In this document: positions 17,901 to 54,088 of the stretch, piece by piece | Position numbering within the stretch: position 1 is the stretch's first letter | How the letters are laid out: every line of letters starts with the position of its first letter | Assembly: GCA_041649175.1 (NCBI GenBank) | Contig: JBAZNR010000001.1 | Location: 386,332-450,331 of the forward strand | Length of the DNA stretch: 64,000 nucleotides | Source of the DNA: Candidatus Omnitrophota bacterium | GTDB taxonomy: Bacteria; Omnitrophota; Gorgyraeia; Zapsychrales; JBAZNR01 | Reading direction: 5' to 3' | Made by a program: the position numbers and the translations under genes | The notes under the pieces: model-generated | What the model saw: only the letters and a program-made list of their open reading frames with translations | What the model was told of the DNA's origin: nothing | Databases searched by the model: none

Positions 17901-20900
17901 TAAATCATACGGCGATGTGCATTCATTAATTGCTCATTTAATTCTTCTTCAGTCAATTCATCAAATGTTTTAGCCGGCTCTACGGTTTCTTCTGTTGAGA
18001 TCTCTTCCGTTGCGGGTTCTTCTGTAACAGCCTCTTCTTGAACTTCTTCTTGCGTGGATTTTTCAGCGCGAACTCTCTTTGTTTCTTTGACAATGGCGGC
18101 AATAACTACGGCAATTGCACCTACCGCTAAAATACTGCCTCCGTTGTCGGGAGAAGCTGTTGTGCTAGCCGTCGTCTGGGCGAAGAGATTACTGCTTGGG
18201 GCAATGATCATGGCAATGATGAACGCGTCTTTGAGATGTTCTCTGAACCATGCAAAAACCGGGGAAAATTTTGATCGATGGGTGAAGTATTTGATTGATC
18301 TTTGAACACGTTTTAAGTTGTAAACGATCGGCGCTACGGCAGCCCAGAATATCATTGCGCCGATCGCATAAGCAATGATATCCCCTATGTCTTCGGTCAA
18401 CGTAAGCCAATAAAGATTGTGCTGATTAATAAAGTCGCTAAAGAATTCTTGTATGCTTAAAGCAACCGTCACGGCCATCAGCGTCACAGGGAAAAGATTA
18501 GGATTAACAGGCTTAATGGGCCTGATCTTTTGTTCCGGAGAACTGTGTTCGTTAAACATGAACTTGGCAATGATCTTAGATTTTCTGGCGATCTCAACTA
18601 AACCAAGAACCACGCTTGTATACCACATCGGATCTAAGACATTAGCGAAATAATCATGCGCCAACGGGCTGATAGCTTTAAAATCTATATAAGCAAAGAA
18701 ATAAAGGAAAATAGCGATCGGCGCGAAAACAAAGTTCTGTCTTAATGAGTAAACTCCGAAAAGGATCGTGCCGCCATAAATAATGATCGGGGATAAAATA
18801 CCTAAAATGCTGGCATCCCACGGCCAAACATCGCCTTGCGCGCCAAAAGCCGCAACTGCCGTTACGGCTAAGGCGGCGAGAATTGCCGTTAAGAAGTTCG
18901 GAGCGACAAAAGAGTTCTTGGTTTTTTCTGATTTAGTTTCTGCTAATTCAACTTCCTGTTTGGCGGTTTCATTGTTCACAAATCCATACGTGCCCGGCCA
19001 GAACCAGAGGAGCGCGATCTGCCCTGCTGAAAACGCCAATTTTAAGATCGGGTCAACCACGCTTACGAACCATTGCGGCATATTGCCTTTACCGAAAAGT
19101 AATTGCGTGGCGTCTGTTTTGAGATAATTTCCGCTGGCGTCTTTGCCCGGGATAAGCGGAATGAGGTTCATAACAAAGAGGAATAAGTTAAGCCAGAAAC
19201 TGTTGGATAAGGCAATGGTTATCAAAAGCTTGAGGCTGATCGCGCCGATCATGATGGATGCAGGGAAGAAAGCAATGACAGCTAAAAGCAATAACCCGGA
19301 AACAGCGAATAATTTAAAGTTATTCCCAGGGCCGGCAAAAATAACTTTTCGATATTCGCTTCCAGTCGTGTAGTCATGGTTGACGCTGACCGGAATAGCC
19401 GCGCCGACTTTAATACCTAAAAACGGTTTAAGAATCGTTTCTTTAAAACTAATGTGCTTCCAAATCTTCCAAACGGTCGCTCTTTCAGGTAAAGATTCTG
19501 TCTTATCGCCAAATAGCAAGGCTGTGATCGCGTGTCCATATTCGTGATAGGCCAAGTAGAGAAGAACGGACGGCCAGACAACAGCCATCCACAACCAACG
19601 TTCCCCAACGAAGAATCCAACAAAAGCCATAAGATCAAATTGACCTAAAGCTAACACAGCGTCTTTCATGGTCGTCAATAACCCGCCAACAGAAAGCATG
19701 GTCGGGTCAATACCGAAAAGTGCGATCGCGATCGCCATCAAGGCAACCGTAACAATTGTACCGACCACAGCAACCGCCACCGGTAAACCGATGCGTTTGA
19801 GCAAAGAATCTTTTTCACGTAATGGCTGACCGTCACCTTTAGTGCGCGGGAAACCTTCCCCGGCTAAACGGTCATGAGCGGCAACGGTAGCTATTTCTTT
19901 AATACGTTTTTCGCTCAGCAATTCAACAATATCTTTTAAAGGACGATTACCGATCAACATCATCTGTAAGACGCGGCTAATCGCTAAAGTCTCTTTGAAT
20001 AATCTTAATTGGCCGTCTTCATCTTTTTCATCAAAGCTGACAATAGAATTTCCGTTAATGAAATCTCTATTAGAAAGATGTTGACCTATACTGCGGCGAA
20101 TAACTTCTCTTTCTTCTTCAGAGGCTTCTAAAATCTTACTGAGGGAAATTGTTCTGTTATTCTGGTTCCAGATCTCACCTAACTGTTCTTCCGTTAAGTC
20201 TAAGCGGCCGCTCACTAAACTCAAGAAGATCGCTTTTTCTTCTTCGGTTGAAAATGACTGTACGGCCCCAAACGCTTGATTGATAGAAATTGACGCTACA
20301 AAATAATCGGAAAGGCCGAATAACTTTTTAGCTTGTTTTTGAGTTAAAGTACCACGTTCTAAAGCTTCTTTGCCCTTTGTGGTTTTCCAAAATCTCTTGA
20401 GCCACGGACGATCTTTGGTCAAACCTTTAAGTTGATCTTTATCAGCAACCAGATAAACGGGCTGATCTTTAATCGCTTGAGCGGTTTTCTTAACGACATC
20501 AATTTTGGCCGGATCAACTAAATATTCATTGTTGGCGAAGTAAAGTGCGGCGGCCGACGGATTGGAAAGAATGAAATAAAGTGTCGAGACATCAATGGTA
20601 GCTCTTAAGAATTCTTGGGCTAAAATCGCATTGTAAAAAAGTTGCGGATTGTTGGTTAAATCTTCAAATCGGTCTAAAGCTTCTTGCAAGGCGGTAACGT
20701 TCATATCATCCTTAATGAACGGCAGGACTTTTTCGTCTTCAATGCTTAAATCTTCCGTTGCCAATGTGCCGTTAGAAAGCCAAAACGCGCGTGCGTCTAC
20801 GGTTAAAGCACCACGGCGCACTAATTCAAATCCTAATTCTCGAAGTTGACGTTCGAGAGCAATGCGGCGTTTTTCAATATCTAATTCTTTGGATAAATAA

Positions 20901-23900
20901 CCTAAGGCTTTGATGATCTCTTCTGCTTCTTTTTGAGCGGATTTTTTGCCGCTTTGAAGAATATTCATCAGCTTTTCATTTAATTCTTTAGCAATATCAT
21001 TTAACTCATTCTCGGCTTCTAAGATCTGTCTAGAGGCTAAACGCTCGATATTGCGTAAAGCGCGGTTGTAAGCTTGTTCGTCATTTTGAATTTCATCGGT
21101 TAAGTCTCTACCGGAATCTCTTCCTTCTTCTTCACGAAATTCATACGTTAAGGTGAAGACTTCAACCATGTGGCGGTCATAGGATTCTAAAGCTTGTTCG
21201 TCTTTTTTATTGAAGATAAGAACAGTTAAAGCTTTGATGGCTTCTAAATTAGCTAAGGCGAGCTTGGCGCGTTTGCCGTCATACAGACGATGAATGGCGC
21301 TAATGATCTCCTCTTCATTGTATTTACCCTTCTTTAGATCAAAGGCAATGCCTTCGGCGATCTCGGAATAATCGAAGAGATTGATCTCTTCATCTTCTAG
21401 GGTTAATGTTTCACCGGCGAGTAAGCGGATAAGAGCATCTTCATCATTGGCAACTAATCGTTCCACGAGGATATCAGCGGCGGCACCGCGTTCAAAAGGC
21501 TGTTGGGCGGCGTCTTCAGTGTTGCGAGTCTTTCCGGAGAGAATATCTAATAATTCACTTACCGGTTTATTGGCTAAGGCGCGATACGCGCGGGTATAAC
21601 GGACATCATCAACTAAAGCGGAACCGTTGTTTTGATTTCTATTTAAAGGAACCACCCGGCCGGCGTCTTTTTGGCCGTTTTTGCTTTCAGCTGCCACGGA
21701 GACCGAGGTATCCCTCGGGAGGGGCCGAAGGGCCTCGGCTCCGTTGTTGGCAACTTTAAATCTGTTAGAATGACCGTTTAAAGACCGCGCGAAATCAACT
21801 AATTCCATCGTCATGGAGAAGTCTTCGTCTACGCCGACTTCATGATTAACAATAACCAATTGACCTAAGGAACGAACGGCTTTTAATGAAGATTTGATCT
21901 TTCCTAAATTGGATAATCTTTGATTGATCTGAATGCGTTCATCAAGCTCTCCTCTGCCGAATGTTTCTAAGGCGAATACAATAGCGGCTAAAGGATTCAT
22001 CATATCTTGAACGCTATATTCATCGCCTACCATCAAACCGGAGATCAAAGCTTTTAATGTTTCATCTTCAGTAGCGTCAAAAGAATCATTGATGAAGTTT
22101 CTTAAATTACCGGCCTTGATGTAAAATTCGATAAATTTCGCTTGGTCAACAGCGCCGTTGGAGTTGGCTTCGTTCCAAAGTGTGAATAATTCCGCAATTT
22201 CGGCGATCAGGACATCAATGAATTCTCTTGTTTCTTCGGTCATCCGTCTTTTAGTTGCCGCGGAACTCAAGTCATTCTGCATAACAGAAGCTTGAGTTCC
22301 GTTGGCAACATCGGATCTGCCTTCCGCCACGGAAGAGGCAGATCCGTTTAATGAAACATGGATCCAATCAATGATCGTAATAAGCGGAAAATCTCTGGTG
22401 GTAATCGTCGGCCAAGATCCTAAAGAAAGCCACGCAATCACATTGGTTAATCCTTCGGAAAGGTCGTCGGCTAATTTCACCATTTCATCTTCGTTGTAAT
22501 TTCTGGCTTGGGCCGCTTCGCCTAAGGCTTGGGCTTTCTTGGAAAGATTGATTTCATCTAAAACTCCCATTGTGCTCAGGAGAACTTGTTCCATGCCTCT
22601 GTAGCCTTCAATGTTTTGGGCGATCTTTAACAGAAGCTGATCAACGATATAGATGTATTCGCCGCGACGTCTCACCGACACTTTATCGCGGGCTTCGGCG
22701 AGATCGTTTTTGATGCGAGTAAGCATCTTGATCAAACGCTCGGCTCTTTGTTTGTTGACGGTCGTTCTGACGCGGTCGGAAATAAATCCCGGGAATATTT
22801 CAGCTAAGGATTCTTCTTGGTGTTCGGTAACCGGCGCAACAGGAGCTCTGTCAGCCGTAGGTTCTAATCCTTCGTTGGATTTAACCAACATCTCGATCGC
22901 ACGGTTAATTCGGCTTTGGAATTGCTGTTCGGTTAAGATCCAGCTCATTTCAATTCGTTCAAACGCGGGATTGAAGAGGCGGATCACTTTATCTTCGAAT
23001 TTATCAGTGGCAAAACTTAAAGTCGCCGCGAAAACCATGGCGAAAACAACCCAGATGAACCAAGGCTGATGAATAATATTCGCGATTTGATCAGCAAAGC
23101 TGACATGGGAAACAACGCTTAAAACTGTGTCTTGAGCGGCGTTGAATGTATCCACGGCAGCTTTGGTTAACGTATCAATGACGGTTGTATCTTGAACAAC
23201 CGGCGTTGTCACAGTTTGAACAGCCGTATCAGCAACTGCCGAAACGTGCTCGACACCGGTTAAGGCGTTTTGCACCGTTTCAGGCAATTGCAAATTGGAA
23301 AGATCGATGCTTTCTCCGACGCGAATGACATCAGGATTGAAATTATTATTTACGCTTGCGGCAAGGCTGTCGGCTTTATGAGAAGCGCCGTTGAATAATC
23401 TTCCGGAGAGAAGCGATTGAACATATCCTTGCGGATCGACCATTTGGTAGGCCAATCTCATTTTCTCTAAGATATGGCCCCAGGTATCGCCGTTTTGGAC
23501 GATGGCCTGAAGTTTTCCGGAAGCGTCATAAGCGAATTCAACAGCCTGGGCAACTTGAGCGTCAATTAATTTGGCGAGGACAACTAAGGCGGTTACGATT
23601 TTCTTGAGGTTAGATCTCAATGCGGGAATGACACGTAAAGCTTGGGGCGCCTTGTTGCCGTGCAATGACGCTGCGATGGCGAACAACAGTTTGCTCATTC
23701 TCTGCCAGAGGATGCCAGCGATTTTGTTGGCGCGTGTAGACGCGTCCGCTGTTGTGGATGAGGAAGAGGCAGAGCTTGTTTTGTTCCCCGCGGGCGGCAG
23801 CGAACGTGCAGTCGTCCTTGGGGTAATCAATGAAATGCTTAAATTGTAAAGTATCCATAATACACCTCCGTGGCTTGTAGGTTTATTGTTGGATTTGGTT

Positions 23901-26900
23901 TGTTGGCCTAACTGGGCTTTTGAAGCGAGATTGGAAGGTTCACTAGACAAGACGAATCCCGCGTGGCTTTCTCGCGAGATTTGAGGTATGTTGGAAACTA
24001 TTTCTCGTGAAGATCCTGGTCTATTTGTAATATCTGAAGCTTGACCGGTAACTTCAGATACTGCCTTAAGGCCTTGTTCGTCTTCAGCAGCATAAGCTTC
24101 GTTAGTACCTACGATCGCCCTAAGGGCGTTCATAGACGCGGCGGCTAATCTTCCCCATATATAGGAAGCTACCGCGCTAAAGCTTACATTCCCGGCTTCG
24201 ATTCGTCCTTCTTCAGGGCGGACTCCGGGAATCTGAGATAATTGAGTATTCTCATCCTTGACGGTGGATGAGAATCTTCCACTGACTTTAGGGGTGTGGC
24301 TGGTATCAGCAGAAGTTACTCTATTATCCTGGCCGTTAACATCTAAAGAGCGAACAGACGCCTTATCTCCACTAAAGATCCTAGTGGACGGTTTGGCAAA
24401 TCCGGAGATCTCAACTGCCACTGCTAGTGTTTCTTGGCGCAGACCTCTCGCACCACCAGTTCTGAAGTTTCCTTCAGAGCTTGTTATTAAGCTTACGCTT
24501 AATTTTTCTGCTTTGTTTCGTATTTCTAGAGCCAGTCTGCTTAAAGCAGCAAACAACAGGCTAACTCCCGTGGTTTTTTGTTCCGCGCTTATACTTTGCT
24601 CTGTCTGCACCATTGCGGAAATGGTGGACAGCGAGACAATACCAGGATCTTGTCTGACGGTTAAACCACTGAAATGCCTCACCTGTCTTTCAACAGCAAA
24701 TCCTGGGCTTTCTACGGAGTTGCTGGCAACAACGATCGTGTTCGGCTTGGCAAAATCCGGCTTCGTTACAGCTATTTCTGTTGGGGCTTTTCCTGAAGTG
24801 CTTCCCTTGGAAGTATTAGGCTCTTCCTGAGGCGCAGGAATGGAGGTTGTTGCTGAAGCCGCGCCAAACGGATCACGTTTTTCACTTAAAGGAATTCTTG
24901 TGCTACTGTCAGCGCTCTTATTAGAGGAAGTACGTGCTAAGCGAAATACGGCTTGAGTAAAGTCCTGCACTCTTCCCATAATAAGCGCCGGCATTGGCAG
25001 AGGCATTTGTAGCGGCGCCGGAGCCAATATCGGGCTTTGCTCTAAAGGTTGTTGTAACTGAATAGCAGGTAAAGCCGATTCTTGGGCTACATTTGGCAAT
25101 ATTTGCTTTATGCTGGCCTTATCTTCTGCCAAGACGCCTATCGCTGGCTGAATCGGTTGAACAACAGTACTTGATACGACAGGAATCGGCCTTAATCGAA
25201 CAAATTCCTTGGTTCCATTATGACCTTTTCCAAAAATTGCTTTATACCCGTTTAAATGCGGAGCCCAATTTCTTGGAATATTGCTGGGGATAAGAAAATC
25301 ATGCAAAATAAATCCAGTTTCATTCAAATATGGCCTGATATTCTGTAAGTGGGGCGCATATTTCTCATTCAAATGCGCCATTCCTAAAGTACTTAAAATA
25401 ATATTGATCTCTCCGGGCTCAAAATAATCCGTAAAATGTTCTTCCGTATCCAAAATAAACCTGATGCCGGATGGAGCCTTTTGCCATTCTTCATGATACA
25501 TATTGGCAAAACCAACAAGCTGGACATTGGTAATTTTCTTTCGTTTAAGTTCTCTGGCAATTTCAATAAGAGCCCTGGCTCTTCCAACGCCCCAATCCAC
25601 CACAGTGATAACTTTACCTTTATTATGGCCGGCTAAACCGATAATTTCATTGACCACATTGGTATTAAAGGTTTCATTCATTGACCGCAAGCTTGTATCT
25701 AAACCAAGCCATTTTTCCAAAAATTTATTGCGCAAGTTCATGCCAATCCACTGGCGAGATTCTGTCGTTTCGGAAGCTAAGCCTAATCCTTCTTCGTCTT
25801 CCATCAAGATAGATTTATCTTCAAGTTGTGCAATATCCGGCCAACGGGTTTCAAGAACCGCGCCGCCGGTTAAAGCATATGTGTATTTTGAATTCGTATC
25901 GGAAAGTGCGCTTTCATTTTGCAGTAATACCACCATGCCTTTGTCGGCTTTTCCGGGTTGAAATTTTGGTAATTTCATAACAACCGTAATGGTTTCGGAA
26001 GGCGCTTGAGGTTTGGTTGTGGAGATAACCGGCGCATTGTGTAAGCTGGCGCGAACACTTTCGCCGAGTTGCGCGAGGCTAAAAACTTCGCCTTGAGTCT
26101 GGGCGAAAATAATTCCGCCTTTGGCAATGATCGTTTTATCGGCAACGAGCGTTTCCACAACGGAATTATTTTCGCCCAAAGTCAGCACGAAAATATTTTC
26201 GCCGGAAACACGATAAACAGGTTTATTTGTTTCTTGCGCCTGTTCGATCGTTCTTACTAAAAGTTGTTTCTTGGCTGGTGTAGCAACCACCACCAAATTA
26301 TGCGAAGCCGCCGTTGTTGTGATCTTAGATAGAACATTCATCCACGTCGGCATACTGACCGCTTCCACGACGGAACCGACAGATGATTTCTTGCCGATAG
26401 GAACACTGCTAATTCCCCAAGACGAACCAAGATCTTGCTGAGCTGAGGCTAATTCTTGCGCCTGAATTCTTTGTATCCATTCCGTAACTCGTGAAGCCTG
26501 TTTAGCACTATCAACACCGAACATCGTGGAAGAATACGAAGAGATTTGATTTGCTAATTGATCTACGGCAATACCCCTATCCGCGGCTACCCGGCCGAAT
26601 AAAAGGCTTGTTATAATATCATTGTCCGGACGGATATCAACGGCAGGTAAAGCAAGCGCCAAGAGATTGTTCTCAAAAGCCATTCTATCTTCGTGTTTTG
26701 AAACGTTTTGTAAAACTATTTTACCGGCCTCAAAAACAATAGACGCGCCTTGTGTATTTTGCCAGAAGTTTAAGATCATTTGTGACGCGTCGGCCGCTGA
26801 GACGTCACCCAAACGAGCAGCAGTTTCTTCTAAGTTTCTCGCTAATCTTTCAACGGATTCTTGACGAAGAGCTCTTTCTTGCTTTTGTTGTTCGGTTTCG

Positions 26901-29900
26901 GTTAGATCAGCAATCTCTAAATCCGCCCTGAATTCTTCTTCAAGCTCTGAACCCACGATATCATAATATGTATCCATCGCCTGGCTGGCACTTTGCTTAA
27001 TTTCCGGAGAGACAAAAGATTTCGTGGTAAACGCGGCAAGAAAATATCCAATGCTTTTAGCAATTCCGAGAGGTTCTAAAGGATGTCCCGCCAATTGCTT
27101 GTTAGCGCGAAGAGCGTCTCGTTCTTCCAATTTCATTAAAAGAAACACGCTGAGAGCATTAAAATCACTTGTATTCATTTGTGCTTCAGATATACGACTG
27201 ACAATTCCATCAATGCGGTCATATTGACCCATTTCCGCTTCCATCGGATCTTTGTCATCATCAAGCCACGATGTATCAAGAAGTGCCTGAGCAATTTCCG
27301 GAATGTTCACCACATGGCCTTTGTCAGCGAATTCTTGCTTCGCCATCGGTGCTGTCGCAAGTTTTTGAGATGTTTCAACGGATTTCCAATGATCATAATC
27401 AGACCAGGCCACCTTTAACGCATCCTCTACTGGGCCCATAGCTTCCTTAAGATACTCTGGAATCTCATCTGTTTCTCGATACCACTGCGTAAGCCATATT
27501 CCGCTATCCGGATAGGCGGCTACCATTTCTTTTATCCAGCTTTGAGCCAAGGCGACTTTTGCAAAAAGCGGCATCGGAGAGTTTTCAGCTAAACGATCTT
27601 TGAGCCAGCCTAAACGAAGGAGATTAACAGACGGTAAAGAAGCGCCTTCGCGAAAATCAATGATGGGGTTTTTCCCTAAAAGTCTATCCTCAAGATCTTT
27701 GCTCCAATGATTGTCGTGAGGAGCAGGCGTCAAACCTTCTTTTTCCGCAAGCTCATTGCCTGCATATGTCCATCCCCAGTCACTGCCAAACCATGACCAA
27801 TGGCCCCCTCGTGTCGTTGTGTATCCTAAATCAGATATGGCGCTGCCCACATGTTCCGTAATCTCACCTTGAGCATCTAAGGAAACTTGTTTATACTGGG
27901 CTTTACCTAAATTTACTCCTTGTGCAAGAGGTTCACTGCCTAAAACAATAGTTCCTTCCGGTAATTCCAAATTGCCTCTTACCCAGGTATCAACTAAATT
28001 AAATCCTTCCACTTTTGATTTTGGTATGGATGTTAAAGGAAGGATAATCGCATACTTCTTTTGCCCCCAAGAAGAACTGCCCGCTAAACCACTATTTCCT
28101 ACGGAGTGGTTAAGAGCAAAATGAATAGTGTCTCGCGGTATTCCTGCCGCAGATAGATCTGTTTTTATAATCCCGTTTTCTGGAAAATAGTCCGTGCGAT
28201 GAACCATCACCAGATCCGCGGGCTTAAGTCCACCAAGTTCTTTTATCGTTTCAGATTCAGAAGAAAATGCACGCGGCGCCATTTCTGCGGTTTCCCAGCC
28301 ATTATCTAAAGCTTGCTGGAACATTTTTTGAGAAATTGCAGCGGGCAAAGGCATATCATCCGGATGCGGCGGAATATTTTCATGAAGCGGCAAGGCTATG
28401 CCGATTTGTACCGCGTCGCCTTCGGGAATTTGGGAGATTTCAGTTGTTGGAGCCGGTAAAGCCGGGCCGTCTTGATAAACACCCGCGCCGGCCAAGATCG
28501 TCGGAGCGCTGACAAGAATAGGAGATTTTTGAGCTAAAGCTTGTTGTGTCTTTTTGCCAAAACCAAAAGCAGCTGTAAACGCATCCCACAATTGAGCACC
28601 AACGCTGGCATTTGAATTGTTTTGCAAAGCAACTTCTTTTTGGCTGTCTTTATTTTGACCGGCCTTGCTTGAGCCAACCAAGCTCAATAATCCCAAAAAT
28701 CCAAAACCGGCTTGCATCGGGACGCTGACAGGCAATGACGCCGGCGCCGGCATCGTCGGAATACTTCCCACCGGCGCGATCGGAGCAGCCGGCACGACAT
28801 CTTTTACTGAATCGGAAACGCTCGGTGTAAGAGTTTTTGTTCTGGCTTCCTCAAGGATTTTGGGATGAGCAGTATTAATTTCGCTTAAGACCGCCGCCGC
28901 TCTCTTAAGCGAAATGTTGCGCAGCGCGTCATTAAGCGGCGTGTGAATTCTTTGAAGCGCCGTCACCGATTCACCGTTAATCTCCTTGATAAAACTATAC
29001 GCAGAGACGGCTCTAGCTTCAGTTTCTTTTCCGGTTTTTACATCTCGTAATCTAAAATCAGCCTGGTCGATCTGGCTAAAGCCGAAGCCTTTGCCGTGTT
29101 CGGTTGGAAATGTGATATCAATAACTTCGAATGTATGAAGCGCCGTTGTGAGGCGATCGCCGATTTTGACATTTCTCATACGCATCGCTTCCAATGACGC
29201 TCCGGAAAACATGACAACAGACCGGGGATCAGCGGGCATGTTGCTGTTAGGCAAGGTTATGTTTGCCGCCGCATCCGCTCTTATTCCCTGCGCGTCCAGG
29301 GCTTTGCGATCGGCGGTACCCACCGTAAACTTTCGCAGACGGTGGTTAAGATCTTCCACTGATGTTGAGCGCGGGAATAGATCGATTCTCATCCCTGGTT
29401 TTCTGGAATAAACTAGACCATCTTTGGTGGACGCAGTAGCGTAAACACTGTCGCGATTGAACGGGATGCTGACAAAAGCTCCTTCACTTTTCTTAACCGC
29501 CAGATCCGCTAAAATAATGTTCTTCGGATTTTGTTCGTCCTGGATCTGAACAATGGCATGATCCCATTTTCCGGTCGTAACATTCTTAACAAAAAGCACT
29601 TGAGGTTTAAGCCCCAAGGCTTTTCCTAAAATATTCGCCGTAATGGAAAACCCTAAACAATCCGGCATTTTTCCGTATTTCTTAGAGAGAACAACGCTGT
29701 CTAAACTGCTGGAAGAAAAATCAAGTACGGAATCGGCCGTCACATCACCGTCAGGGTAACTAAATCCTAATCCTTGCGGCGCGGATGCTTTGATCCATTT
29801 CACTAAAGTATCAACCTTGGCGCGGGTGTTAGATATAGAATTGAAGTGATCTTTGTTGAAATTCGGGATGCGGCTGACCATGCTTCCAAGCGTTTGCGCT

Positions 29901-32900
29901 GTTTGTTCGCTGTAGCCTAAATCTTGCGTGATGGTAACAACATTAGCGCGGGCATCTTGCGTGAGGTTTGTTTGCGCTGAGGATAAAGACGGCATTAGTA
30001 AGGCTACCGTCATGAGCCCGGCAACGGCTAAAGTTTTGAGTGTTCCTACTCTAGTTGGCTTGGCTATTGCGCTGACTGTTGGAACTTTCTGCGCTGCCAT
30101 ATCTCGATATTTCGTCCTGATCTGCTCAACCCTGGAATATTCAATGCTCGGGATCTGGCTTATCCCGGCTTGATCCAAGAGAAATGCCCGATGATGTCCG
30201 TCGGACAAAGCGACAAATCCGTCCGGTAATCGAGAAACGATGACAGGATTTTCTCGTGTAAATTCAAGAAGTCGATTAGCATTATTTTTGTCTGATAAAA
30301 ATAGGCCGACCATTTCTTTCATGGTCGCATCTGGGGAAACTTCTAAATTTAAAACGTGCGTTAAAATATCTCTGACCTGGTTGGCTGCAACTCCTTGATT
30401 TCCGATCTGGCCGTTTGGTTTTTTCATATCAGCGATGTTACTCAAAACCGCGCTATTGGCGATCTCTTGCAACATGGGAGAAACCCAATCCGTTGACAAT
30501 TCAAAGCTTTGATTAACCAAAGTAGCCCGAACGGTTTCGGGAAGCTTGCTAAGCTCAACATAATATCTTCGTCCGCTCGTGGTGGTTATAATACTGCGGC
30601 CGTGATCATCAACGCGTACTTTTCCGCCTTCTTGCGTTAAAACAGCTCCGTTTAAATCAGCAATTGCCATTGTTGACCATTGCCGGCCGTTCGTGTGAAG
30701 GGATGAAACTTGAATTTCTGTCGAGATAACAGGTTGAATATTTGTTTGCGGCAACACGGGTGTTTTACTGACGGCGATTTCGTGAGAAATTCCGAAAATG
30801 GCATCGGCGCTCTTAGCCTGATTAGAAACCTCAAAAGCGTCTTTTGCGCCCATAGCTTTTGCGGATTCTCCAGCGAGTCTACGGCCGATACGGGCAAGCT
30901 CGGCTAATTCTTTGATCTCGTGAATAATCACTTCATTGGACTGAATTTGCGGATTGGCCGCCCAAACAGCGCTATCGATAAAAATGATATTTCCTAAATT
31001 GCGTGCGGCCCCATGTCCGGCGGCTTCAAGCCCATTGACGCTAACAATTTGATAAGCATTTTGCGCATCTTGCGCTCTATTGCCATGCCAGCCGACGGTT
31101 TGATGAGAATTACTATCAACAAAACTTGATAATGCGGCTGCTCCGTTAAATTGTCCGTTTAATGCGCCGGCGCGATCACCGGACGGCGTGTTCCCGAGGC
31201 TTTGATTGACTAAGGCAACGCGGACAGGTTCAGGAAGTTTTTCAAGCTCAACATAATATCTTCGTCCATTAGCCATGGTGAGAATACTACGGCCTTGATC
31301 ATCAACTCTCACGTTACTGCCTTCTCTCATGAGCGTTGCTCCGGTTAGATCAGCCGCTTTTAATGCTGCCGGTTTATTACCTCTTCCAAGAGATACGACC
31401 GGAATCTCAATATTAGAATCAATGCCGGCCATATGATCAATAGCCGGAAGGCCTAAATCAGTGCCGTTATGGCCGTTTATGCCATTTAAGGATCCTGTTG
31501 GATCAAAGGGGCGAACTTCCGGCATACCATTTTCTTCCATGCCGGGCAATGAAGTAATGGCAGGTGAAGCATCTGCTAAATCAGGAATATTTGTGCCGAG
31601 ATCTTCCGCGCGCGGTAATTCAGCCGGAGGTAATCCATTGTCTGCTCCCATATTCGAAGCATCAACAAGAGGTTGCATAACGAGCTGTTCAACTCTGGTT
31701 GTTTCAACGGCAGATGCAGGTTGAGCCGATGGCATCGCGGGCTGTTCCACTCTCGGCGAAGGTGAAGCCTTAGGAGCTTTTGCTGAGACAAGCGCGACTC
31801 CGTCCTCATTTCGAATAACTTGTCCATACGCCGCGATCTGCCCAAAGATATCATTAAATCCGTGATCAAGCCCGAGTTTGGCGCCGAGTTCGTGAATAAG
31901 CATTTCGCTTACTTCTTCAACACTTCGCTCTCTTCCGGCATTAAAATCCTGACGGGTTAAATAAAGCCGTCCACCTTCTTTAAGCCAAGTTCTTTGCCGT
32001 TCGACAGTGCCATCTTCTTTTTGCACCAAAACATCCACATAACGCTGCCTGTCTCCGGATTTATTTTCGCCCCAATGTGCGTCTTGGACCATACTCTCGC
32101 CAATCACAAGATGTGACGCATCAAGTAAGAAAATAATTCCTTCGCGATTAGGATCAGACATCACTTGAAGTTCGCTGGAAATTCTTGCCAATAATTCCGG
32201 TAAATTTTGCCCTCTATTTTCCGCAAATTGTTGTAAACTTTCTAAGGCCCTTGTCTCGTCTTGATCTAATGGCGCTCCGCTTCCGTTAAGCGCACCCATA
32301 AATCGATTTAAACGGTTTAATGTCGTTTCAATAACCGGATGGCTTAAATCTAATTCTTCGGCTCTACCTTGATTCATTAAGTTGGAAATACGTCCATGGG
32401 CACGCGCTTCCATAGCCCGGCCAAAATTTCCTTCTTGATCATGATTGCTACCTGAAGCATTGACCGGGTTATCACGCTGTAATTGCGCATCGGCAACTTC
32501 ATCTACCCCTAAAGGAACAAAACCCGGTTTAGGCTGAACATCCGCCGACACTGGTGTTTCTACTAATAATCTCGGAGCAGAACCAACGGCGTTGGCAACC
32601 GCTTGAGGAGCAGCGCCGGGAATTTGAGATGGGTTAAATGTAGGTGCTGTCGGAGTACTTGGTGTTGTTTGCGAGCCATCAGGCGCGCTCGGAGCTGTTG
32701 GGCTGGCATAAGGATTTGTACCTCTAAAAGAAGGAAGTGATGTACCGGAATTTCTACCAAATCCACGAGCAACACTACTGAATTTTCTTGAACTTCCGCC
32801 GTTTTTATCAAAACCTTCCTGCAGGGCTTCAATGCCAAGGTTATACAGCGAGAAATTCGGATCATTCATGTCGGGTGTGCCGAAATTCATTTGGTTTAAA

Positions 32901-35900
32901 GCTAAGCGAAATGTATTTCCGGCAATTGGCTCACGGACAAATTCTTCAATGATAAAGTTCTGCGCGTTATTGACCGCGTTACCAATCGCTTGCCCCGCCT
33001 TGCTCTCTCCAAAAATAGCCCGTGCATTAAAGACCTTATCCCCGATACCAGATTTTTCACTTTGCCAAACCGACATTATCTCACCAATGATCGGAACAGA
33101 ATTTAATCCGGGTTGAATGACGGGCTTTAACGGATATAAAGCAGGGCCGAAATACAAACCTGTCTTTGCGCCTTCTGCCATGGAATTAGCAATAAAATAA
33201 CGGACAAATCTAGAATCGCTGTCTTTACTTTTTAAATCGTTTAATTTTTCCCCGATTTCTTTATCGCCGGTACGTTTATACTGGATTTCCAACTCATCAA
33301 TTTGTTGTTGCTTAACACTGGCAAAACTTTGCGGATCACCATCTCCAAACATATTTCCCATTAACCACGAGAAGTTAGAATTAAAATTGACAGCTCTATT
33401 CCCAAGTTGGTCCTCTTGAACAAAATCATTGGCATCTCTGACATAACTCGCACGTCTTGCGGCATAGTCCTGAGCAAAAGGAATGAGAACATTCATTGCC
33501 GCTAACTGCGGAATAACACTCGTAGCACTACTGGCCATTTTCTGTCCCATGATAAGCGCTTTGGAACTGGCTGTTAACCCTTTGCCACTTAGCTCAAGCG
33601 CTTCAATGCCAAAACCTTTGCCAAGAATACCGCCGGCCATCAAGATAAGACCTAAATCTTTATAGTTGTCTGATCCAAAGAATAAACCTGCCCCTGCGGC
33701 CGTTGTTGCCAATGTTAAAGCCGATAAAGTTCTTTGCCCTTTTTGCCAACCCTTAATAAGCATCCCTGGACCAACAATACCTAAACCAAACATGGCTAAA
33801 CCGGCATCTTTATGGCCAGTCGCAATCATGCCGGCTGTTGTCCCCCAATAAGCCTTAATGCCAAGATTGGCTCCTATTTTTCTCCAGTTGCTTGCATTCT
33901 GTACTATTTTTCCTCCGGAGCGCTCTAACGTAAACCAATCATCAATATGAGTCGGCTGGCTTAAAAGCGGTTTGGCAAAAAGACCAGCTGATAAAAGCCC
34001 AAGCCCTGTCAATTTCTGATCGTCACGGCCAAAGAATGTTAACCCAACCCCCGTGCCGACAACACCAACTCTGGCAACATTCAAAACCCGGTTAAGCCCT
34101 TTAGATTGAACCAATGTGGGCCAGATAATTGCCCGAATAGTTTCTTTGCGAGTTTCTTTGGCAAACAATCTTCCCGTAGCACTGGCAACATTTTTTACTC
34201 CACTGAACAAAGACGTAACAAACGGCCCAGCAAGCAATATCGTCAGCCCAAGCTTGCGATACGCATCTTTTGTCAGATTATTTTGATTAAGCGCCGGAAT
34301 AGTATCTCCTAACTGAAGAGCAACCGACAACCCGGCTTCAATACCGCGTATTCCTTTAGGGCTAAATATTTTCTGAAAATACGTTAAGGCATCGCCAGCT
34401 CTGGATAGAGACGTATTTGTTACTCTAAACGCAGAATTTTTAAGAATTTGACGCTGGGCATTTCTTGCTTGGTGAAAACCGTTGCGGCCAAACGACGTTA
34501 ATTTGCCGTGGTGAAACAAGGAAGACGTTAATGCCACCCGGCCTATATCATTCCAGTTGATCTGGCCTTTATCGTTAACGACCAAATGCCGGCCGGTGGC
34601 CATTAAAGAAACCGTGTCAGCCACGGTTAAGTCAATACCGACATCAAGAGCTGTTTTGCCTAAACGTTTACCAATGGTTCTGGCTGTTGCCGCGGAAAGG
34701 ATTTTAGCTGTGGCCGCGTTAACACCGCGCCCGACGATCATGCGGCGCATTTCCATATTAACACCGCGAGCGAAAGCTGATCGCCCTTCCGCTTTCACAA
34801 GATTTTTTACGCCATTCTTGAACACAATTCCGTTTATAATGGTTTTTCGGCGAAGTGAAGACAGAATAGCATCTTTACCAACTTTTCTAATAGCCGTCAT
34901 CGTCGCTGTTCTTAGACTTTCCGATCCTGTTGCCGCCGCTCCTGAAATACCGGCAGTAGCAAGGCTACCGACAACTAAGAAAGCATCGACCGTCAACCAA
35001 ACCGCATTGGCGGCATCAAATCCGACGACCATTCTTTCTGTTTTGTTGACTTCTTTAAAAAGATTATAGGCATTGCCGGCTTCCATGTATCCTAAGGAAA
35101 CAAGATAAGAGTTCAAATCTCGCATGGTCGAGGCATCATAACCGCCGCGAGATGTTAAGACGTCACCAAATTCGTAGTTAATTAATTCTTCCGCAACACC
35201 TATGCCGGGATAAAGATCAGGATCGCCTAATTCCTCTTTAAGGTCGGCCGTACGCTTAGGATCCCAAACGAATTCATTTAAATTGTCTTTTGAGATCGCA
35301 AGAGTTATCACTTTTTCTTTTCTGTAATCATTCCACTTCTCCTGCGCTAACCCTTTAAAATCGTCAATGACAAAATCGCTGCGGTCATTCCTGCTGGTCT
35401 GCGGATGAATGGCATCGGTTCTCACCGTATAGGTTTTTCCATCCACAACGATATCCACATATTCCTGCAGATTTCTTAAGCTGGTAACGGTTAATGCTCC
35501 GATAGATACAGAAATGGGCTCCCATTTTCCTGTTGTAGAATTATAGGCATATTTCTTGGGATCAAATCGCTCATCCCACGGATGGATAAATCCGCTATTC
35601 GTCGGGCTTTGAGCTGTCGGAAAATGAGTTTCTGGCTTTGGCCCAACGCCGGCTTCACTCGGATTCATAAAGAAATAATCCATGAAATCTTTATCGACCC
35701 TAAAGCTTTGTTCTCGGCCGTTAACATCCTTGTAATACACTTTCGGACCAAAACCCCCTCCTGCCTGGCTGAGCATATCTCGGCTGATCCGACGATAAAC
35801 TTTGTTGCCATTTTCATCTTCTCTCCAAACTGTAACGACTTTGCTGGGATCGTCTTTGCTGATGGTAATGTCACCATATTTTCCGTAAGGAAGAAGCTCA

Positions 35901-38900
35901 ACAACATCCTGATCGACACCGCTAGCCTGAAAATATTTATCCCAAATATCTTCTTGAGTGCCCCAACCGGTATTGACCGTTCCTTCATAATTCAGTGTGG
36001 AGCGTAGCGCGATCTTTCCGTAATTATCATCTGTAGTATCTTGGATGATGGGATTATTCTCATCAAAGACAATACCCATCGATTGGCCGTCTTGGGTGAA
36101 CGTCGCCGTATCAGAATCTTTGCCTTTCATAACAAATTGATGTTCGCTAAGTCTCGGAATGCCTAAACTAGCCGCATTATCTACAACACCGTCTGTGCCT
36201 CGCGTTGAAGAAGCGGAAGAATCTCGTTTTGCCGCCGCGCTTAAAGAATCTGCCGCAGCTTTTTCTTCAGGGGAACGGATAACAATTAACTTATTCCAAG
36301 GAATGCCGCTGGCATAAGCAATTCCGGAGCGATCCAGTGATTGTTGTGTTTCCGATGGCAAACGGCTGATCTCGCCTTTGGTATTAAACGCCCATCCGGT
36401 GATTTTGCCGTATTGGTCGGCCGCATAAAGCCATCCTTTGTCTTGACCGTATCCGCCGGGAATCATCTCAAGCGTATCATCACCGATCGTAACTTCTCCG
36501 CCGCTAATGAAGAATCTTTCTTGGTCGGGAAGGAAATTGCCCGTACCATCGGGAGTACTTATTTCTTCGCCAGAAAAACGAAGCGGTTTGTCAAAAGAGA
36601 TAGCTGCTTCACGTCCTCCTAAATCTACATCTAAGTTAAGATCAACAGCAGCACCGGCGGCCTGCCCGTGAATAAATTTACGCGCCTCACCGAAGTATTC
36701 GCGAGAATCATCGGTCACCGCAAACCCATAATTATCCGCTAAACTTGTATTGCGAATACGACTGTCCTCGCTGTAATAGCTTGACAACTCATCAGTTGTT
36801 TTTCCCTTAGCATCTTGAGCAAAGGCTCGGACAAGTTTAGACGTATCGGCATAATCTCCTGGCTTGATCTGAACAGTGCTTCCCTCCCCTAACTTCGGCG
36901 TGGACGGATCAAGATAAGAAAATGTTAAATAAGAATTTGCGTCTTGGGCATTCCAAATATCTTTTTGCCCGTCATTTTTAACAAAGAATTTAGAAGGCGA
37001 TTGTAAAGCCGCATTAGATTTTTGGGCTTGGCTTGAGCCGCCTTCGCGGGCAAAAATACGATAACCCGGAATATAAGAACCTTTGAATTGCGCAACAAGC
37101 TCATCTGTTTTTGTATTAAAGCGTAGCCCGGTAGCAGAAAGCGATTGAGTATATTGAGGATTTCCTATCGCATCAACCATTCCGGTTTCTATCGTGCCTC
37201 CATATAGGGCAACATCGTCGGAAACCGCAACGTCAGCAAAGGTTGTCATTATCCCATTGCTTGAGCCGATTCCGGTAATAATTGTTTTCGAAACACCGGG
37301 GACAACAGCCATGCCGACAACTTTTTGTGTTCCATTTTCTTCTTTGGTGATCGGAGTTATATAAGAATCATTGATCGTCATTAAATAATCCGAGAGATGT
37401 TGTGCTTGCACAGCTTCTGCATGACCGGCAAAATCAGTAGACGATTGGCTTTGACCAGATAAATCGATAACACCGTAAATTCCCTGCGCGGCATTAACAT
37501 CTCGTTGGGCCATGGAATCTGAAGAAGTAACTTCCATTGGACGCAATCGTGTTTGGCTGCGGAAATTATCAACCACAACAAAACCATCTTGCTTCGCTGT
37601 TTCGACTTTTTTGTCTTCTCCAACAAGAGAAATGGTGGCAATTTTTTCTTTTGGTTTAGCGACAGAGACTGTAAACTGATCGTCTTGTGCCAAAATATAC
37701 GGACGGCCATTTTCATCAACACCGGCTACCGGTTTGGGTAAAGATGTTGTTCTGGCTGTTAATGTATTCTCTTCTAAAATGGTTTGGTCGCCTTTTTTGT
37801 ATAAGGCGCCGCCTAACAGATCCATGCCGCTGAATTTATAAGGAACGCTTCCCACTTTTCCAAATCCAGCCGTAATCGTATGACGATCTTCACCAACGCG
37901 GACATAAGATCTATTGGCCGGATCATTGGCTTTTTGAGCATCCGCATCAGAGATTTCTTTTTCGCTGTAATGAGTTTTTTGCGCATTGTCTAGACCTAAA
38001 TACGTATCTACTAACATCGCCGCAGGCATGGCTTCTTGTCCGGTTAAGCTATCTAATCCGGCGATTTGAGCAAGCCTCGCTGTATACACATCGTGCTGCT
38101 CACCGCCGATTTTAGCAGCTGTTGACTTGTTACCATTGGTTAATTGTGCGATAACCGGCGCATCATCGCGGACAGATTGGTTAAGAAGGCTTCCTTCAAG
38201 GCCACGATTATTAACATTCAATTCGCCGTTGCCGCCTTTAGATTCAACGCGGCGTATGGCTAAATTAAATTCATCACCGGTAATAATGTCATTCTCAATT
38301 GAGGCGTTATCATTTTTCCAAACAGGAACAACCGTATTAGCACCGTCCCAACGGGCATCTTTACTCGTAAATCTTTGGTCTTGTCCATCCTTATTAGGAA
38401 TAACGAGATCTGAGTAAGCCGGCAAATTGTCTTTGTTTGCCGGAGAATAGACCGGAGCACCGCCCACGTTAGTAGCTTTGAAATTTTGTCCCGCCTTATT
38501 TATCTTTAGCGCTAAAGCATTATCTTTGCTATCGGCGCCATTGTGGAAAGTTAAAGGACGCAGCGTATTAAGAGTAAATTTGCCTTCACCACTGCCGCTG
38601 TATTGCGGAATTCTGCCTTCAGCAAAAGTGATCTTTTTATCGGAATACGTAACGGGTCCAAGGAGAGGATCATTGTAAGGGGCTTCTTGATCAAACTGGT
38701 ATTCTTTGGCGCGGAACACTTCACTTAGGTTATAAAGCGGAATATTCTCACCTTCATTTTGACTGGCATATTCAGCTCCATATTTTAACAATTCGCCATT
38801 TTTCTCAAAATTAATGGGATTAACTTTAAGGACTAAGCCATTGTCTTCACTGTTACCGCCTGCGCCTTGACTGACCGGCATAATGAAATACGGAACGATC

Positions 38901-44965: not shown

Positions 44966-45104
44966 TCTGTTCTCCATATGGTTTTGAAACACCATTGTCC
45001 AATCTGGAATAAACTAAAATGGCACCATTTTTACCAAACGCCAATGAGCTGAAAAAATCCATAAAATGAGAAATCTCCGGCAACAAATCCGGAGATCGGG
45101 ATAT

Positions 45105-46815: not shown

Positions 46816-46837
46816 TATTTTCTCACCAGTTAGTTAA

Positions 46838-46966
46838 TTTCCAATAACCAAATGCCAATGACCAGATAAACTTCAATAACCAATTTTCTAATTTCCAAAC
46901 GTTTTTAACATTGATTATTGATAAATTGGGAATTATCTGGATGTTGAAATTTGGTCATTGGTTATT
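46838..46966 (+). repeat. MITE-like intergenic repeat, copy A, about 130 bp, with imperfect terminal inverted repeats (aataaccaa..caatgacc / ggtcattggttatt)
   Basis: It fills the whole tadB-tadC spacer. Its first 100 bp are about 88% identical to copy C at 52,069-52,165 and it is the reverse complement of copy B at 47,915-48,040. The shared core is ccaaacgtttttaacattg. Confidence 0.6.
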
Positions 46967-46969
46967 ATC

Positions 46970-47827: not shown

Positions 47828-47914
47828 GGTACTATTTTTGCTTAAAGCCTTTCAAAAATCAACTTTAATATGGAAAATTAACTTTGCGGGTTGTGGGGAT
47901 GCATTATGAGTTTT

Positions 47915-48040
47915 GGTCAATGACCAATCACCAAATTCCAACATCCAGATAATGTTCAATTTACAAATAACCAATGTTAAAAACGTTTGAATATTGATTA
48001 TTGGAATTTGTTTGGTGATTGTGTTTTGGTTATTGGAATT
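47915..48040 (-). repeat. MITE-like intergenic repeat, copy B, in inverted orientation
   Basis: Its reverse complement aligns base for base with copy A (...attccaataaccaaa...caaacgtttttaacattgg...attatctggatgttggaatttggtgattggtcattgacc). It lies between the Cys-rich pilin gene and tadB. Confidence 0.6.
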
Positions 48041-48048
48041 TCAGAAGT

Positions 48049-48567: not shown

Positions 48568-48570
48568 CGT

Positions 48571-51720: not shown

Positions 51721-51730
51721 TATGTATTTC

Positions 51731-52060: not shown

Positions 52061-52068
52061 ATTTAAAG

Positions 52069-52165
52069 TTCCAATCACCAAATTCCAATGGCCAGATAAA
52101 TTTCAAAAACCAATTTTCTAATTTCCAAACGTTTTTAACATTGTTTATTGAAAATTGAATATTAT
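52069..52165 (+). repeat. MITE-like intergenic repeat, copy C, apparently 3'-truncated
   Basis: ttccaatcaccaaattccaatggccagataaatttcaaaaaccaattttctaatttccaaacgtttttaacattg... is about 88% identical to copy A. It sits upstream of the small TadE-like gene. Confidence 0.55.
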
Positions 52166-53752: not shown

Positions 53753-53759
53753 CAATATT

Positions 53760-54086: not shown

Positions 54087-54088
54087 AT

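Follow-up and report, generated by a model that had tools for sequence, protein, structure and literature searches.

A giant open reading frame below a Tad/T2SS-like cluster

The minus strand of the window (the whole stretch of DNA analysed, 64,000 nucleotides) carries an open reading frame without stop codons from 45013 to 2. It comprises at least 15,004 codons and runs past the low edge of the window, so that the gene, from a member of the phylum Omnitrophota, is longer than 45,000 bases. Residues are numbered here with the codon 45013–45011 as residue 1. There are two ATG start candidates, at 44977 and 44995, of which the former is the likely start because relatives begin at a position aligned with M13; the latter is the alternative. 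The sequence is not repetitive, as only two internal repeats were found, and a hydropathy scan reveals about 30 or more hydrophobic helices. The N-terminal transmembrane or signal-anchor helix is directly preceded by four Lys/Arg residues and, by the positive-inside rule, the domain that follows it is therefore predicted to lie outside the cytoplasm, as it probably does. The giant protein is encoded directly downstream of a pilus-secretion cluster of the Tad/T2SS-like type, the components of which are listed in Table 1 together with the features of the protein. The preliminary description had drawn attention to four short motifs, two near the N-terminus and two in the middle of the protein; all four were found where it had placed them, on the minus strand and within this single frame.

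Table 1. Location of the genes, domains, motifs and candidate catalytic residues in the window
Feature	Residues	Window positions	Strand	Basis
Tad/T2SS-like cluster upstream of the giant ORF		45910..63720	minus	Pfam matches
Secretin with TonB_C domain		62101–63720	minus	Pfam
ParA/CpaE-like domain fused to T2SSE ATPase		59927–62092	minus	Pfam
Two T2SSF proteins		46970–47827 and 45910–46815	minus	Pfam
Several small Flp/TadE-type pilin-like ORFs		within 45910..63720	minus	class III signal motifs G/Q-x-T-L-E-Y
Giant ORF, at least 15,004 codons		2..44995	minus	stop-free frame 45013..2; start ATG 44977 or 44995
Conserved head	about 7–394	43831..44995	minus	40–54% identity to fragments of Omnitrophota proteins
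N-terminal transmembrane / signal-anchor helix	about 40–62	44828..44896	minus	hydropathy scan; AlphaFold helix at model residues 31–56
C39-fold cysteine peptidase domain	about 140–300	44114..44596	minus	PF03412, conservation, AlphaFold, Foldseek
NCGVYAL	159–165	44539–44519	minus
Candidate catalytic Cys of the C39 domain	C160	44534–44536	minus
EHFITVTAIDD	244–254	44284–44252	minus
Candidate catalytic His of the C39 domain	H245	44279–44281	minus
Candidate catalytic Asp of the C39 domain	D261	44231–44233	minus
Internal hydrophobic segment, signal-peptide- or TM-like	4989–5013	29975..30049	minus	hydropathy scan; sequence ending ...LKTLAVAGLMTVALLMPSLSSA/QT
Candidate thiol-hydrolase core	5117–5173	29495..29665	minus	motifs present; without significant homology
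PDCLGFS	5117–5123	29665–29645	minus
Candidate Cys of the mid-protein site	C5119	29657–29659	minus
KWDHAIVQIQDE	5149–5160	29569–29534	minus
Candidate His of the mid-protein site	H5152	29558–29560	minus
Candidate Asp of the mid-protein site	D5170 (D5159 as alternative)	29504–29506 (D5170)	minus
Probable M50 (site-2 protease)-like membrane metalloprotease region	about 8483–8621	19151..19567	minus	PF02163 19.5 bits, below cutoff 27.2
Peptidase M23 domain	about 9202–9298	17120..17410	minus	PF01551 E = 6e-24; HGGID and HLH motifs read directly

Conservation is confined to the N-terminal head, and similarity to relatives stops at its end, at about residue 394. The head has 31 homologues, all of them partial proteins; those with a named source all come from Candidatus Omnitrophica/Omnitrophota, and most of the 31 carry a precomputed PF03412 match. 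In a tblastn comparison, one relative matches residues 33–394 of the giant protein only. For the body, a 1,200-residue slice (residues 4520–5719) gave no homologue in a word-indexed search of 5.8 billion proteins. This agrees with the description of giant ORFs as 'poorly conserved' (PMC10066038).

The N-terminal C39 peptidase domain

Pfam, fold and conservation evidence agree in identifying the N-terminal module as a cysteine peptidase of the C39 fold. The preliminary description had proposed a module with C39 triad spacing just after the single N-terminal transmembrane helix, and this part of it is confirmed, with the Cys/His/Asp set intact. Peptidase_C39 (PF03412) scores 43 bits (E = 5e-11) on a slice of residues 90–330 and 35 bits on a slice of residues 7–4800, against a cutoff of 22, with a match that spans positions 41–127 of the 133 in the profile. 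Weak NCBIfam and PHROGs matches over the same stretch correspond to peptidase-containing ABC exporters. Across 24 aligned Omnitrophota sequences there is no variation at the candidate catalytic residues C160, H245 and D261, nor at N159, E244, F246 and G263. The Cys and the His are separated by 85 residues, and the His and the Asp by 16.

The AlphaFold model of the N-terminal head, obtained with an alignment, has a mean pLDDT of 81, with values above 90 within the C39 domain. The domain adopts a papain-like C39 fold, in which the Cys is located at the N-terminus of a helix and the His opens a strand. In a Foldseek comparison with the PDB, the best 18 matches are all C39 domains (probability 0.99–1.00, TM about 0.7 on the target), and the alignments cover about 132–149 columns of domains of roughly 140 residues; the structures matched include 6mpz, PCAT1, 5xe9, 3b79 and 3zua. 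The sequence has diverged so far that a profile of the family matched no PDB sequence, and the C39 assignment is consequently based on Pfam and on the fold.

The domain matches the C39 domains of PCAT/AMS systems (LahT, 6mpz; PCAT1, 4ry2; ComA, 5xe9) in its fold, its Cys/His/Asp triad, the Asp 16 residues after the His and the Cys that starts a helix. By contrast with PCAT C39 domains, it is not fused to an ABC transporter, as no ABC Pfam match was found in the 15,004 residues, and its predicted position after a transmembrane helix is extracytoplasmic, whereas the PCAT domains are cytoplasmic. The giant protein also differs from PCAT systems in that no double-glycine leader motif was detected; both the ABC fusion and such a leader are features of PCATs and not of the fold.

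The oxyanion-hole Gln of C39 peptidases is expected about six residues before the Cys. In the giant protein the residues leading to C160 read S-I-H-P-L-N-C, with no conserved Gln upstream of the Cys, and the invariant N159 might substitute for it. The lack of this Gln at the usual position, the failure to find double-glycine substrates and the presence of HlyB C39-like domains among the structural matches (3zua, 7sgr) would fit a non-catalytic C39-like domain limited to substrate binding or chaperoning, as in HlyB, but this is improbable, given that the full Cys/His/Asp set occurs without variation in 24 relatives, that HlyB-type domains lack the catalytic Cys, and that the best structural matches are the active double-glycine proteases LahT (6mpz), PCAT1 and ComA. 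We infer catalytic competence for the C39 domain as an endopeptidase, which would act either on the giant protein itself, so as to release or mature it, or on some other substrate.

A candidate thiol-hydrolase site in the middle of the protein

The 15,004 residues contain exactly two cysteines, C160 of the C39 domain and C5119, compared with about 260 Cys codons expected from the positional base composition and an average Cys content of about 2% in the neighbouring ORFs. The relatives of the giant protein are Cys-poor, not Cys-free. The count of two cysteines is absent from the preliminary description. Two preprints on giant proteins (bioRxiv 10.1101/2023.11.21.568195 and 10.64898/2026.06.07.730766), in which the words 'cysteine' and 'transglutaminase' have 0 occurrences, mention neither this extreme depletion nor the C5119 site.

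C5119 forms a candidate triad with H5152 and D5170, with a spacing of 33 residues from Cys to His and of 18 from His to Asp, or of 7 if D5159 is taken as the Asp. In real BTLCP proteins these distances are 34 and 15, and in lasso-B2 proteins the Cys-to-His distance is 35. The order and spacing fit transglutaminase-like/papain-like hydrolases, which alone is weak evidence; as a caution, a Cys/His/Asp spacing picked out by inspection should not be counted as evidence of a transglutaminase fold. At the level of motifs only, the site shares with BTLCP/LapG-type, Transglut_core and lasso B2 cores a D-C-x-x-aromatic-small start (here DC-x-x-F-S) and a turn Gly followed by a hydrophobic residue at +15/+16 (here G-L). 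It further shares with them an H-A dipeptide at about +33/34 (here +33), with an Asp that follows hydrophobic residues 15–18 positions later (here H+18). A simple signature (an aromatic residue at +3, A or S at +4, the dipeptide HA between +25 and +60, then D between H+10 and H+20) was drawn from real family alignments, but defined after the site had been seen. It occurs at 4 of 14,914 anchor positions in the giant protein, C5119 among them, and the match, being post hoc, is suggestive only.

About 105 residues upstream of C5119 lies a hydrophobic segment whose sequence reads like a signal peptide. The candidate site closely follows this internal signal-anchor-like helix and belongs to a lineage-specific segment for which no relatives could be detected. 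LapG, a BTLCP, is a known transglutaminase-like protease that clips giant surface adhesins. LapG-type enzymes are separate, periplasmic proteins, whereas the present candidate is embedded in the giant protein. In sequence, profile and structure alike, its similarity to them or to the minimal transglutaminase-like cores stays below significance.

The preliminary description had assigned a transglutaminase-like or papain-like core to this region, and profile, profile–profile and structural tests all failed to reach significance. At E up to 10, neither slices of the whole protein nor seven short sub-slices gave a match at the site in Pfam, NCBIfam or PHROGs; the families covered include Transglut_core (PF01841), Transglut_core3 (PF13471) and BTLCP (PF06035). 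A sequence search of the PDB returned only a spurious chemokine match. A 251-residue slice likewise gave no match in the word-indexed search of 5.8 billion proteins, and phmmer against 1.84 billion representatives yielded no credible homologue; three phmmer matches, to TPR or cadherin-like repeat proteins, align outside the Cys–His stretch and were judged spurious. Collections of genome and metagenome contigs contain no relative of the site, and the source contig itself is also absent from them. Within the giant protein, self-BLAST detected no paralogous copy of the site.

HMMs for three families, transglutaminase cores, lasso-B2 and BTLCP, were built from 10, 3 and 8 real members respectively, which were fetched by tblastn on plasmids with consensus queries. 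When run with --max, these HMMs did not place the site among their top matches, and it scored no better than shuffled sequence. Profile–profile alignment with hhalign gave P = 0.047 for BTLCP, and 0.56 and 0.2 in the other alignments, with a probability of at most about 1%. For the BTLCP profile and for that of canonical transglutaminases, the helix with the catalytic Cys falls on PDCLGFS in the top local alignment; with the BTLCP profile, Cys is aligned to Cys and the His is left unaligned. A single-sequence AlphaFold model of the site is unreliable (pLDDT 41). At this low confidence, a helix begins at C5119 and is followed by strands that carry the His and the Asp; Foldseek with this model returned no papain-like match, and the matches that it did return are meaningless. 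Several other assignments of C5119 were rejected, namely an intein/Hint start (wrong motif, helix predicted), a lipobox (Cys about 105 residues from the hydrophobic segment), a thioester domain (no TQxxxW motif) and a clan CD/C80 site (no hydrophobic strand before the Cys). The resemblance to transglutaminase-like, BTLCP and papain-like cores is one of motif and spacing only, unverified, and the site is treated here as a hypothesis and not as a second protease.

With homology and fold tests all negative and the surrounding 1,200 residues unconserved, a reading to be taken seriously, if at somewhat less than even odds, is that C5119 is a non-catalytic leftover or a recent substitution in an orphan, fast-evolving segment, and that the spacing of the His and the Asp is coincidental. 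Cys is tolerated in the family, and a single 'leak' in about 15,000 sites would be the outcome of strong but finite selection against Cys. This reading has to accommodate a local context that agrees with the thiol-hydrolase signature much more closely than a randomly chosen position, and the fact that both hhalign runs (BTLCP and transglutaminase) anchor on C5119.

These same observations, together with the helix-then-strand pattern of the low-confidence model and the small number of positions that carry the simple signature, allow a more tentative proposal, in which the region is a genuine, highly diverged papain-like (transglutaminase/BTLCP-type) thiol hydrolase, a second cysteine protease or a transamidase. 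Adjacent to the membrane, it would act on the giant protein or on a substrate at the surface of prey, much as LapG does on giant adhesins. Because no Cys other than C160 and C5119 is present, retention of C5119 for a function can be argued, and the term 'unverified' may understate the case. The failed family searches, HMMs of three real families that do not beat shuffles, an hhalign probability of about 1% with the His unaligned, a pLDDT of 41 without a papain-like Foldseek match, homologues for a triad comparison not found in the collections searched and a signature defined post hoc count against it. A stronger version, which we consider unlikely, holds that all but two cysteines were purged because both are protease nucleophiles, that C5119 belongs to an unrecognised, extremely diverged BTLCP-like domain and that both sites, with the M50-like and M23 modules, cut the precursor, which exceeds 15,000 residues, into functional pieces at the membrane; if true, the protein would be a bacterial 'polyprotein' containing a new thiol-protease family. 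That C5119 is functional but not papain-like is improbable. Its role could then be in redox chemistry or in a disulfide, perhaps with C160 itself, which would keep the C39 site locked; it could also carry a lipid or a thioester, or form a His-before-Cys arrangement with H5056. The ORF does have exactly two cysteines, the best non-self match in the whole protein of the C39 family His-motif HMM is IPNFNKDHF (residues 5049–5057, 62 residues upstream of C5119), and hhalign gives P = 0.099 for the same pair, but the match has a score of -0.8 bits and a helical prediction where a strand would be expected, no lipobox or thioester motif is present, and no Pfam cysteine-peptidase family besides C39 matches at E up to 0.1, C80 included.

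Peptidase modules and relation to Omnitrophota giant proteins

The preliminary description had counted at least four putative hydrolase or protease modules in the protein. Two are verified, C39 and M23, and one is probable, the M50-like region. The M23 module is a solid assignment by its Pfam match and its sequence motifs, with HxxxD and HxH intact. For the M50-like module, HEYGH at residue 8490 is the only HExxH in the giant protein, lies within a cluster of transmembrane helices and is followed by NLIPLIPGKD at about residue 8617; the Pfam score lies below the cutoff, but with these motifs the module is probable. Overall, we put at roughly three in four the probability that this is a giant membrane-anchored multi-domain Omnitrophota protein with a true C39 head, in which the mid-protein site has the standing of a hypothesis only.

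Autoprocessing of the giant precursor had also been suggested, and a search for cleavage motifs lends it no support, as double-glycine-leader-like motifs are not enriched (0 strict matches versus 0.8 expected). A parallel in concept is provided by MARTX and large clostridial toxins, in which an internal cysteine protease (Peptidase C80) autoprocesses a very large secreted protein. Peptidase C80 belongs to clan CD, with the His before the Cys, and has a different fold from the modules described here; the giant protein has no C80 Pfam match at E up to 0.1 and no cleavage-site evidence. The combination of modules had been called very unusual, which overstates the case, since an N-terminal C39 domain, several peptidase domains and the hypothesis that C39 cleaves the giant protein were published in 2023 (bioRxiv 10.1101/2023.11.21.568195). 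Whether Omnitrophota giant proteins exist as a single chain or as cut pieces is stated there as an open question. The present protein offers a clean handle on self-processing: it exceeds 15,000 residues, yet has just two thiols, and a verified protease fold contains one of these, so that thiol-directed probes or Cys-to-Ala mutants would be unusually specific.

The giant protein belongs to the described Omnitrophota giant ('Archaeovorin-type') class and is no new kind of element. Omnitrophota giant genes have been described as encoding an N-terminal C39 domain and many transmembrane helices and as being preceded by a T2SS/T4P-like cluster with small class-III-signal genes (West-Roberts et al., bioRxiv 10.1101/2023.11.21.568195), and the association of a C39 head with an upstream Tad/T2SS-like cluster is thus already known. 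Like Archaeovorin-type proteins, the present one has an ORF of tens of kilobases, many transmembrane helices, a C39 domain beside an N-terminal signal/TM segment, further peptidase and glycosyl-transferase domains, a T2SS/Tad-like cluster ahead of it and a poorly conserved body. A divergent SecA_DEAD domain occurs in most Omnitrophota giant proteins (bioRxiv 10.1101/2023.11.21.568195), whereas none was found in the visible 15,004 residues of an ORF that continues beyond the window. A cluster of 24 long proteins that share the PF03412 (Peptidase C39) architecture has also been reported (bioRxiv 10.64898/2026.06.07.730766).

The giant reading frame and its N-terminal C39 domain

The giant ORF is a single minus-strand frame without stops that runs from 45013 to 2 (15,004 codons) and is open at the low end of the window. 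Residues are counted from the codon at 45013; the alignment of relatives favours ATG 44977 as its start, with 44995 as the alternative. All four peptide motifs quoted in the preliminary description are found in this frame, within the ranges assigned to them, and the first, NCGVYAL, is preceded by a hydrophobic helix (aa 40–62).

The C39-like module proposed at the N-terminus adopts a C39 fold with an intact Cys/His/Asp triad (C160, H245 and D261). The Peptidase_C39 profile (PF03412) matches with 43 bits, and this region also weakly matches NCBIfam and PHROGs families of ABC exporters that contain a peptidase. The 31 homologues of aa 7–330 are all partial proteins with 40–60% identity; most carry a precomputed PF03412 match, and those with a source name come from Candidatus Omnitrophica/Omnitrophota. 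Across 24 aligned head homologues, N159, C160, E244, H245, F246, D261 and G263 do not vary, and D261 lies 16 residues after H245, the spacing found in C39 peptidases. The AlphaFold model of the head, computed with the homologue alignment, has a mean pLDDT of 81, with values above 90 in the domain; C160 is located in the first helix turn and H245 begins a strand. A Foldseek comparison with the PDB revealed C39 domains as the best 18 matches (probability 0.99–1.00, TM about 0.7 on the target), including LahT150 (6mpz), PCAT1, ComA (5xe9), 3b79 and the C39-like domain of HlyB (3zua). A search of PDB sequences with the head-family profile returned no match because the family is so diverged.

By contrast with transporter-borne C39 domains, the module is not accompanied by an ABC domain (Pfam, 15,004 aa), follows a TM helix and lacks the Gln at the usual oxyanion position. 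The helix carries Lys/Arg on its N-terminal side, and the C39 domain is therefore predicted to face outward. Motifs resembling double-glycine leaders, searched as candidate cleavage sites, are not enriched in the giant protein (strict 0, relaxed 2 and minimal 7, versus 0.8, 2.9 and 7.7 in shuffles). Fold and triad are thus shown by Pfam, alignment, AlphaFold and Foldseek, whereas activity and substrate are putative. The domain would face the periplasm or the exterior and work as an active endopeptidase, whose target may be the giant protein itself or some other substrate; the autoprocessing suggested in the preliminary description is hypothetical.

A conserved head, a divergent body and the upstream cluster

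Omnitrophota relatives resemble the protein (about 47% identity) no further than about aa 394. The relative on a 139-kb contig (L022, 9647–11075) resembles the giant protein over aa 33–394 only (window 43831–44995, minus strand), and its following ~3,000 residues have no detectable counterpart there. A homologue search with a 1,200-aa interior slice around C5119 was empty. The family thus combines a conserved head with a non-conserved body, and the whole body is lineage-specific, because the interior slice lacks homologues and the relative matches aa 33–394 alone. Self-BLAST found two internal duplications only (both pairs at 27–53% identity), and the protein is hence non-repetitive.

Pfam matches are few over the entire 15,004 aa. 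Among the additional hydrolase modules proposed earlier, M23 is a solid assignment by profile and motif because HGGID and HLH, its metal-binding motifs, are both preserved; such a module would fit an attack on the cell walls of prey, as already proposed in the literature. The M50 match falls below its cutoff, but the assignment is probable because HEYGH (aa 8490–8494; window 19532–19546, minus strand), the sole HExxH of the protein, lies inside this match among clustered TM helices, and because NLIPLIPGKD, a sequence similar to the second motif of site-2 proteases, comes about 125 aa further on. The giant protein is a multi-pass membrane protein of an Omnitrophota bacterium, with a TM helix and C39-fold domain at its head and M50-like, M23 and glucan-synthase-like modules in its body, encoded behind a Tad/T2SS-like cluster.

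The Glucan_synthase match is embedded in a TM-rich stretch of this bacterial protein. This family, 1,3-beta-glucan synthases of the FKS/callose-synthase type, is known chiefly from eukaryotes. A term search for 'glucan synthase' found no mention in either preprint on Omnitrophota giant genes (10.1101/2023.11.21.568195; 10.64898/2026.06.07.730766).

The protein belongs to an already described kind of Omnitrophota giant protein, a class for which the N-terminal C39 domain is known. A 2026 preprint (10.64898/2026.06.07.730766) describes a cluster of 24 long proteins with a common PF03412 domain architecture, and Tad cassettes adjoining giant genes. West-Roberts et al. (bioRxiv 10.1101/2023.11.21.568195) report that a T2SS/T4SS-related secretion system precedes such genes, with small class-III-signal genes nearby. 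The window agrees with both, having a secretion cluster and small class-III-signal ORFs upstream on the same strand. The cluster includes two T2SSF proteins (Pfam) and two unusual fusions, ParA/CpaE–T2SSE and secretin–TonB_C. The small ORFs begin with ...G/Q-x-T-L-E-Y, a Flp/TadE-type signal; two of the six tandem ones have runs of 7–9 glycines near their ends. Three Cys-rich ORFs without a Pfam match contrast sharply with the adjoining, nearly Cys-free giant ORF; signals at the start of the two that were read (48049–48567 and 52229–53818) are ...STLEY... and ...TVTEL....

Features of the giant protein and its upstream region
Feature	Residues	Window	Strand	Basis
Secretin with C-terminal TonB_C domain		62101–63720	(-)	Pfam
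ParA/CpaE-like P-loop domain fused to T2SSE ATPase	721-aa ORF	59927–62092	(-)	Pfam
Six tandem small ORFs	81–133 aa each	53760–56095	(-)	Flp/TadE-like class III signals
Cys-rich ORF, 4.0% Cys		52229–53818	(-)	Flp/TadE-type signal
Cys-rich ORF, 4.5% Cys		48571–51720	(-)	composition
Cys-rich ORF, 9.9% Cys		48049–48567	(-)	Flp/TadE-type signal
NCGVYAL	159–165	44539–44519	(-)	read in giant ORF
Peptidase_C39	about 200–283			43 bits on aa 90–330 slice, cutoff 22
EHFITVTAIDD	244–254	44284–44252	(-)	read in giant ORF
Duplication 1	4536–4680 vs 4766–4908	about 30290–31408	(-)	self-BLAST
PDCLGFS	5117–5123	29665–29645	(-)	read in giant ORF
KWDHAIVQIQDE	5149–5160	29569–29534	(-)	read in giant ORF
Peptidase_M50 (weak)	about 8483–8621			19.5 bits, cutoff 27.2
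Peptidase_M23	about 9202–9298			E = 6e-24
Glucan_synthase (PF02364)	about 12705–13424	4742–6901	(-)	E = 8e-74, profile positions 6–703 of 819
Duplication 2	14113–14410 vs 14613–14966	about 113–2677	(-)	self-BLAST

Two cysteines and the mid-protein site

The giant ORF encodes exactly two cysteines, C160 (44534–44536) and C5119 (29657–29659), one by TGC and one by TGT, against about 260 Cys codons predicted from its positional base composition. These are precisely the two nucleophiles proposed in the preliminary description. The other ORFs of the window average about 2% Cys, with 4–10% in some pilin-like neighbours, and relatives are Cys-poor yet not Cys-free. C5119 could be the single leftover of strong but finite selection against cysteine, which would leave just one such residue; since the only other cysteine, C160, has been verified as the nucleophile of the C39 domain, C5119 may reasonably be suspected of being kept for a reason as well. 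Of all these results, the restriction to two cysteines is the one that merits further work, since it renders the giant protein an unusually clean subject for thiol-directed experiments.

The transglutaminase-like module placed at C5119, H5152 and D5170 is unconfirmed. The site shares D-C-x-x-F-S at the Cys and Gly-Leu at +15/+16 with alignments of bacterial transglutaminase-like cysteine proteinases (BTLCP), lasso-peptide B2 proteins (lasso-B2) and canonical Transglut_core-type domains. H-A is offset by +33 from the Cys (34 in BTLCP, 35 in lasso-B2), and an Asp after hydrophobic residues lies at H+18 (15 in BTLCP). A simplified family signature occurs at 4 of 14,914 anchor positions, C5119 included, a count that must be discounted because the signature was written after the site was seen.

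Pfam, NCBIfam and PHROGs gave nothing relevant on slices of 76–285 aa around C5119 (E up to 10), nor did a PDB sequence search; a word-indexed protein search and contig scans found no relatives of the region. With phmmer, 1.84 billion representatives yielded three repeat-protein matches only, all outside the Cys-His stretch. HMMs were built from annotated plasmid proteins (10 canonical cores, 3 lasso-B2 and 8 BTLCP, 'transglutaminase-like cysteine peptidase') and scanned against the entire giant protein with all filters off; the C5119 region was absent among the best matches of all three. The aa 5096–5190 slice did not exceed its own shuffles with any HMM: its score was equalled or exceeded by 74 of 500 shuffles with lasso-B2 and by 13 of 500 with BTLCP, whose alignment was off the Cys, and the canonical HMM did not report the slice at all. 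hhalign was slightly kinder, with the top local alignments of the BTLCP and canonical profiles setting the catalytic-Cys helix on PDCLGFSITANILGKALGLKPQ (P 0.047 and 0.56, respectively; probability at most about 1%) and leaving the His unaligned; the lasso-B2 profile gave nothing. A true papain-like thiol hydrolase at C5119 is, on balance, less likely than not.

Directly upstream of the C5119 segment lies the duplication pair aa 4536–4680/4766–4908. Apart from the self match, no segment of the whole protein fits the C39-family His-motif PPFIANFxSEHF better than IPNFNKDHF (aa 5049–5057; window 29843–29869, minus strand), located 62 residues upstream of C5119; with -0.8 bits and an hhalign P of 0.099 the likeness is insignificant and probably coincidental, given this score and the predicted helical structure of the segment. 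A stretch resembling a Sec signal peptide (aa 4989–5013; window 29975–30049, minus strand), with a basic n-region, a hydrophobic core and ...PSLSSA/QT, precedes C5119 by about 105 aa, mirroring C160, about 98 aa past the first TM helix; this stretch may be left over from a gene fusion or serve as an internal signal-peptidase site.
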